A stretch of DNA of 64,000 bases from Escherichia coli. GTDB taxonomy: Bacteria > Pseudomonadota > Gammaproteobacteria > Enterobacterales > Enterobacteriaceae. The translations under genes were made by a program, and so were the position numbers. The notes beneath the pieces were generated by a model. The model searched no databases. It was not told the DNA's origin and saw only the letters and a list, made by a program, of their open reading frames with translations. The stretch lies in the NCBI RefSeq assembly GCF_003018115.1, contig NZ_CP027457.1; one strand, 5' to 3'. Below, piece after piece: positions 55,429-59,817 of this stretch (positions are counted from its first letter, which is position 1; each line of letters opens with the position of its first letter).

Positions 55429-58661
<3,233 letters not shown>

Positions 58662-58998
58662 TTAACCAATTCTGTGTTGCACACAGTTATCTGTGAGAAA
58701 CCCATGGAAGAGAAATGGAAATAAAAAGAACTGACACCGCGATCAAAAAACCAAAAACTGCAATACCCACAGCGTGATATTGATCGCATTAATCTTTAAA
58801 ACGGCGTTGACAGAAGCCATAAAATAAGCAACCGAACGTTCGTTCGAGCATGTTGGGAACGATAAACTCTCATGACATATGGCTACGGTGAATATTTTGG
58901 GGGGGGAATTCTCCGATCCCGGCTAGATTGTATTTTGTACAGGGAAATTAAAGTATGAAACGCGGGCACAGTTATCACCAGCCCGCGAAATGAGAGGA

Positions 58999-59589
58999 TC
59001 AGGATGCGGTTAAGATACCGCCAATCATCGCGCGTAATCCCTGAGCAAACGACGCTTCACGCGCCAGATCTTCCGCTTCGATATCGGCCAGTACACCGTA
59101 GGTCAGATCCAGCAGTAAACGTGAAGTCATTGACGTGTTGATGTCTGGGCTTATCTCGCCTTTTTGCTGGGCATCACGCATCCGCTGGGCAACAAATTCA
59201 GTGATCGTCATATGCTTATTTTTAAGCATGGCGGCGACCTGTGGGTTACGCATCCCTTCCGCCATAATTTCGACCACCAGCGCCCGTTGCCCAAAGGCTT
59301 CATGGGTGAGAGAGACAATAGACTCGACCATATAGTCAACAAAATGAATCCCTTCTATCGGTTCCCGGAAACGGGCCAGCGCCCTCTCCTGGTCCTGTAA
59401 GATAATCGCCTGAATCAAGGCTTCTTTGGAGATGAAATGGTGATAGAGCGTCCCGGGACTAATGGCGCAGGATTTACAGATGGCTTTCATCGAGGCACTG
59501 TGAAATCCATTTTCTGAAAAAATCTCTCTGGCAGCATTGAGGATCCGGGTCCGTGTCGGTTGTGCTTCAGTCTGCATGTTATCCATCAT
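58999..59589 (-). CDS. uidR: TetR-family repressor UidR
   Basis: 196 aa with N-terminal TetR HTH. Confidence 0.9.
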   Translation of the reverse strand: MMDNMQTEAQPTRTRILNAAREIFSENGFHSASMKAICKSCAISPGTLYHHFISKEALIQAIILQDQERALARFREPIEGIHFVDYMVESIVSLTHEAFGQRALVVEIMAEGMRNPQVAAMLKNKHMTITEFVAQRMRDAQQKGEISPDINTSMTSRLLLDLTYGVLADIEAEDLAREASFAQGLRAMIGGILTAS

Positions 59590-59817
59590 TAAACCATTAT
59601 AGTTAGCGTGAATAACTAGTTTACCGCGTTGTCAGGTGAGCGCCTATCATTGCTGTTGAATAGTGCGAAGGCACACTCTATTCGTTTACTTTTCATCCAG
59701 TAATTGGTTAACCAATAGCCGTGATTTGGCTGCCAGTTGTTTAGCAGAGACGTTGATGAATTGCACACGCTATCCCGGTAAACAACACATACTGCTGTTT
59801 ACCGGTTCGTTAGTGTA

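Follow-up and report, generated by a model that had tools for sequence, protein, structure and literature searches.

Does a homopolymer of eight residues upstream of the β-glucuronidase gene of Escherichia coli take part in the expression of uidA or uidR, or is it an ordinary length polymorphism of the DNA between them? The run lies in a window, by which we mean the whole 64-kb stretch of DNA that was analysed, and the locus is the E. coli malI-hdhA-uidR-uidA-uidB region, in which every gene is on the minus strand. Gene names were taken from the RefSeq annotation of the homologous loci in MC4100 and E2863. The elements on which the question turns are the following.

56799-58610, minus strand: uidA (gusA), coding sequence of β-glucuronidase, 603 aa, intact, after the RefSeq annotation of the homologous locus
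58895-58898, minus strand: A4 run adjoining the C8 (T4 on the plus strand), with a C/A boundary that shifts between alleles, e.g. C7A5 vs C8A4
58899-58906, minus strand: the homopolymer, C8 on the gene strand and G8 on the plus strand
58999-59589, minus strand: uidR (gusR), coding sequence of a TetR-family repressor, 196 aa, stop codon included, intact, after the RefSeq annotation of the homologous locus

The initial annotation had set the run at 58889-58896, where the stretch reads TGAATATT; the run in fact sits 10 bases away, at 58899-58906, which is the only GGGGGGGG within the 64-kb window. Its placement between the uidR stop and the uidA start was correct, as the run belongs to the 388-bp non-coding uidR-uidA spacer; 92 nt separate it from the uidR stop codon, which precedes it, and 288 nt from the uidA ATG, which follows. 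The gene-strand sequence here is AATT-CCCCCCCC-AAAA-TATTCACC, and no open reading frame of at least 40 aa extends across the run. As regards the neighbouring gene, uidA of the O157:H7 strain ECP19-598 is annotated as a frameshifted pseudogene, the frameshift being the known basis of the GUS-negative phenotype in O157:H7; the uidA of the window is intact.

The mere presence of such a run calls for no particular explanation. Indeed, the G8 is the single run of G or C of at least 7 in the 64 kb, and this one G8/C8 run compares with a mean of 1.21 over 100 dinucleotide-preserving shuffles of the window, 62 of which contain at least one, and with a first-order Markov estimate of about 0.9. One G8/C8 run per 64 kb is therefore no more than chance and is statistically unremarkable.

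The initial annotation had proposed a comparison of tract length across strains, and so compared the run proves polymorphic, from C6 to C10, with interrupted forms in addition. Haplotype-specific queries of 85-89 nt were matched against 5,426 complete E. coli genomes, substitutions and indels were read from exact matches and from the match span, and selected sequences were fetched. The 388-bp spacer is found in 5,419 of the 5,426 genomes, none of which carries a spacer identical to that of the window (best match 99.5%, most 90-95% identical). The alleles are as follows.

C6A4: exact in 1,481 genomes, including K-12 MG1655, W3110, MC4100, C600 and evolved derivatives
C7A5: on the flanking haplotype of the window, about 22 of the 60 rows sampled from 1,870 genomes
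C6A5: on the flanking haplotype of the window, about 15 of the 60 rows sampled
C7A4: on the flanking haplotype of the window, rare
C8A4 in the exact context of the window (identical 88 nt): only 3 genomes, e.g. GF3-3
C8A4 on a flank with two base differences: exact in 263 genomes of one haplotype
AAT-C8-A4: IAI39
C9A4: avian-associated haplotype, 50 exact genomes
C10A4 (CT282) and C8A4 (64.1): on flanks identical to those of the C9A4 allele
CAC9-A3: one related strain, ChlosBP-23-1
C6A3 and C6T-A3: single fetched strains
CCACCT-A3, interrupted: B2-type, matched in 1,057 genomes, with a length change in 0 of 60 evenly sampled rows
CCTCCCT-A4, interrupted: O157:H7 and BL21(DE3)
CCCACT-A4, interrupted: E. 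whittamii, the outgroup

The C8 form thus accounts for about 5% of genomes, C8A4 being present in about 280 of the 5,426. Every K-12 laboratory derivative listed carries C6A4; a few sampled rows of the C6 class are 1 nt shorter, and the one that was fetched is C6A3, i.e. a change of the A-run. Furthermore, the 263 genomes carrying the exact C8A4 include the serial isolates Ec-042-T0, T5 and T20. On the genomes compared, the run is a genuine inter-lineage length polymorphism, C6 to C10, mostly stable within lineages. Of the readings in the initial annotation, that of a simple strain feature fits the tract best, C8A4 being a lineage allele.

How the alleles differ bears on the mechanism behind them. 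Compared with the commonest allele on its flank (e.g. that of E2863), the window differs by 58899 C>A, C7A5 vs C8A4, with the total length kept, and boundary substitutions of this kind, rather than indels, account for about half of the observed allele changes. Substitutions at the edges of a run are what transient-misalignment models of polymerase error predict. Among the fetched sequences, one-base changes of the C-run on identical flanks occur only at C8-C10. The indel rate depends on run length in E. coli, and when mismatch repair is defective 8-bp G.C runs are indel hot spots (PMC8510543). An identical C8 is shared by 263 genomes and a C6 by 1,481. The C8, C9 and C10 forms that share identical flanks belong to one haplotype and may include assembly errors: homopolymer miscalls, and not true variation, may account for some of the differences between them. 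The homopolymer length that long-read assemblies give at 58899-58906 should accordingly not be over-interpreted.

The same reservation could be extended to the window itself, the isolate having in truth a G7 or a run of another length that was miscalled as G8. Homopolymers of at least 8 are error-prone on long-read and older platforms, and the absence of a spacer identical to that of the window from the complete genomes would fit such an error. However, what separates the window from the commonest allele is a substitution (plus strand, T5G7 to T4G8) that leaves the length unchanged, typical errors of this sort being indels, and C8A4 recurs, in 3 genomes with the identical 88-nt context and in 263 with the flank that differs by 2 nt. 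Because the nearest allele differs by a substitution and C8A4 recurs in 266 independent genomes, an assembly artefact is quite unlikely. The lack of an identical spacer is explained by the C at position 58852 together with the rare combination of C8A4 plus CTAGCC; at 58852, all 16 E. coli spacers compared have T or G.

Per-column variation was then considered over 17 E. coli spacers/haplotypes in 20-column bins, with divergence measured against E. whittamii. In this representative-haplotype alignment, variation is concentrated in the uidR-adjacent third of the spacer and the uidA-adjacent part is nearly invariant. The bins covering 58899-58936, i.e. the run and about 20 nt on its uidR side, each have 10 variable columns out of 20, the maximum of the spacer, and the bin that holds the run has 12 differences to E. 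whittamii out of 20. The next bin, 58937-58956, has 5 variable columns out of 20. Over 58611-58838, values fall to 0-4 variable columns and 0-2 differences to E. whittamii per 20 columns. The run thus falls within the 40 nt of the spacer that vary most, and the following features can be placed relative to it.

58611-58838, minus strand: regulatory block of uidA, conserved with hardly any change in E. coli and E. whittamii
58657-58671, minus strand: UxuR/ExuR-like box AATTGGTTAACTAAT, inside the conserved uidA block
58672-58686, minus strand: palindrome CTGTGTGCAACACAG, inside the conserved uidA block
58788-58948, minus strand: equivalent of the 159-bp O1-deletion segment of BL21(DE3), as given by the mapped primers; it contains the run
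58832-58847, minus strand: palindrome TCGAACGAACGTTCGG, for the most part conserved in E. whittamii, at 51 nt from the run
58907-58947, minus strand: hypervariable segment, upstream of the run on the gene strand, devoid of any conserved element by column variation in the alignment

The segment 58907-58947 diverges far more than the flanking genes or the uidA-proximal spacer, with haplotypes as deeply diverged as ACAAAATACAATCTAGCCGGGATCGG and, in K-12, GCAAAAATTATCCTTCCCGGCTTCGG. A (CT)n repeat at 58992-58998 on the minus strand, immediately after the uidR stop (58999-59001), also differs in length from strain to strain: it is short in the window (GATCCTCTCATTTC), 4 bases longer in K-12, O157 and B2 strains (TCTCTCTCTC...) and 6 bases longer in AHB3. 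A contig search for wider phylogenetic footprinting returned three Escherichia loci, two of them with a rearranged or deleted uid region. Escherichia sp. MOD1-EC7003 and E. coli SCPM-O-B-8794 keep uidR but are rearranged downstream of it; SCPM-O-B-8794 has lost the distal spacer, together with the run and the palindrome at 58832-58847, and its conserved leader is not followed by uidA. NZ_CP090612.1, a 420-kb record classed as a plasmid, also carries a copy of the uid spacer, which matches at 86.7% and spans 5 nt more than the query.

The control region of the gus operon reportedly comprises the GusR/UidR operators O1 and O2 together with co-repression by UxuR (Blanco 1985, Little 2018). The UxuR/ExuR-like box AATTGGTTAACTAAT upstream of uidA is matched by a near-identical palindromic box, AATTGGTTAACCAAT, upstream of uidR at 59702-59716. 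The two boxes, 58657-58671 and 59702-59716, share 14 of 16 matches, a value equal to the maximum of 30 shuffles (max 14, mean 12.1). Both resemble the UxuR/ExuR operator consensus, and this likeness suggests that UxuR/ExuR control extends to uidR in addition to uidA.

In BL21(DE3), deletion of an "O1 operator" segment (OpΔ) abolished the control by GusR (PMC9881133). The bounds of this deletion were obtained by mapping primers DE6279/DE6280 (PMC9881133 supplement) onto BL21 and onto the window. These primers are all that the literature searched yielded, its text giving no operator sequences for O1 or O2. The palindrome at 58832-58847 is the only palindrome or dyad symmetry inside the O1-deletion segment and would be the candidate distal GusR operator. 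At or adjoining the run, no dyad symmetry is found, so that the run lacks the palindromic character of a GusR/UidR operator; nor does it have the conservation, being interrupted in E. whittamii, O157, BL21 and B2 strains. Two sequences next to the run were also considered as GusR sites: TATTCACCGTAGCCATA resembles the uidR -10 region with 12 of 16 matches and CTGTCAACGCCGT resembles the uidR promoter with 14 of 20, both at the level of shuffled controls, and both were rejected. The promoter scan gave no promoter-like site at the run; its one promoter-like site, on the plus strand at 58796-58825, is unrelated to the run and no more than expected by chance.

Since the run is upstream of every conserved element, a change of its length leaves the spacing between any two of them unaltered; it alters only the distance of those elements to the hypervariable segment and to the uidR terminator. 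If O1 lies in the conserved part of the fragment, the run would be on its uidR side and the distances between O1, O2, the UxuR box and the promoter would be unaffected. Proximity of the run to O1 would be excluded by conservation arguments only. The initial annotation had supposed that slippage could alter promoter or operator spacing. This is not supported, given that the run is upstream of the whole conserved block, that the allele of the window differs by a substitution from the commonest one on its flanking haplotype and that C8 is invariant in 263 genomes.

These observations weigh on the alternative in which slippage of the C-run would change the geometry between O1 and the other elements and thereby produce heritable, reversible changes in β-glucuronidase expression. 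Contingency loci of this type are known in Neisseria, Haemophilus, Campylobacter and Helicobacter, where the homopolymer tract occupies the promoter or the coding region of a gene. Like such phase-variable loci, the run is a G/C homopolymer, about 8 nt long, that precedes a regulated operon and differs in length between strains (C6-C10). One-base variants occur at C8-C10 on identical flanks, and the run is inside the very segment whose deletion abolished GusR control (PMC9881133). However, the run is neither between -35 and -10 hexamers, nor between two conserved sites, nor within any reading frame. Large clades keep it unchanged, with C8 fixed in 263 genomes that include serial isolates and C6 in 1,481, and most lineages lack it or carry it in interrupted form. 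Nowhere is the spacer less conserved than on the uidR side of the run, the motif similarities beside the run stay at the level of the shuffled null, and E. coli is mismatch-repair proficient. Many lineages, as well as E. whittamii, carry interrupted runs that cannot slip, and control by GusR is normal in strains with short or broken runs. In K-12, which carries C6, GusR-dependent control works, as known from classical genetics. It also works in BL21(DE3) (PMC9881133), which carries the interrupted CCTCCCT at the site of the run, within its O1-deletion segment. A pure or long C-run is thus not needed for GusR regulation. Altogether, we regard a contingency tract as highly improbable, and to our knowledge no expression phenotype is associated with the run.

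A related idea is that of a lineage-specific tuning spacer next to the distal GusR operator, in which the length or rigidity of the C-run would modulate the cooperation of O1 with promoter-proximal sites through GusR looping. If this were true, C8-C10 lineages would differ in basal or induced β-glucuronidase, and long alleles would switch at appreciable rates. We give this possibility hardly any credence. 

The run could otherwise act in RNA, as a C-rich stretch of the 3' read-through transcript of uidR that serves as a Rho-utilisation site or affects the uidR 3' end or read-through into uidA. One feature of the transcript is relevant here.

58961-58987, minus strand: terminator-like hairpin of uidR, MFE -17.1 kcal/mol, z = -3.4

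This hairpin is plausibly an intrinsic terminator for uidR. Its tail, at about 58945-58960, is just moderately U-rich, so that some uidR read-through is conceivable, and the C-rich run, about 40-55 nt beyond the hairpin, is predicted to stay unpaired on the transcribed strand. On the other hand, the run and its surroundings are not conserved, the sequence beside it is not G-poor and most lineages have interrupted or short runs. Structure around the run is not significant and folds no better than shuffles (z = -0.3 to -0.9), and the spacer matches no Rfam family at E <= 1. A role in Rho utilisation or at the RNA level therefore appears very remote. As for a G-quadruplex, a single G8 cannot, by reasoning, form an intramolecular one.

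We are thus led to regard the G8/C8 tract as a neutral, lineage-specific and mildly slippage-prone run in an unconstrained spacer, with no demonstrated or likely role in uidA or uidR expression, a reading to which we assign a probability of roughly 0.86. We infer both its neutrality and the mutational mechanisms behind it. The site is without detectable constraint (10 variable columns and 12 differences to E. whittamii per 20 in the bin of the run), and the alleles form single-base steps, from C6A3 through C10A4, with more change in the longer runs; the positions that would make a run phase-variable, i.e. promoter hexamers, intervals between regulatory sites and reading frames, are all elsewhere. 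Nothing in the sequences compared indicates selection for or against a particular run length.

To judge from the outgroup and from the distribution among lineages, the run probably descends from a short C-rich stretch with interruptions, such as E. whittamii, B2 strains and O157 carry. Substitutions within these interruptions and on the T/C and C/A edges would have given rise to pure runs of 6-8. Runs of C8-C10 would be long enough for one-base replication slippage to be frequent enough to show among close relatives.

With neutral intergenic homopolymer polymorphism in general, the locus shares a pure run, single-base differences between lineages, variability in the longer alleles and a setting in unconstrained non-coding DNA; nothing substantive differs, boundary substitutions making up about half of the changes here. 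With the gus (uid) control region, it shares its position in the 388-bp spacer and inside the published 159-161-bp O1-deletion fragment, but the run is outside the conserved block, and the published K-12 and BL21 systems are without C8. The finding is an ordinary mononucleotide-run polymorphism in a well-studied locus, known in kind and with its allele already in public genomes.

The uidA (gusA) gene is a diagnostic marker for E. coli and encodes an enzyme of drug reactivation in the gut, so that its regulatory variants are of some interest; nothing at the run points to such a variant, and in this respect the run matters little. The uidR-proximal third of the spacer, with its C-run, A-run, (CT)n repeat and hypervariable 40 nt, discriminates lineages and is a possible typing marker.
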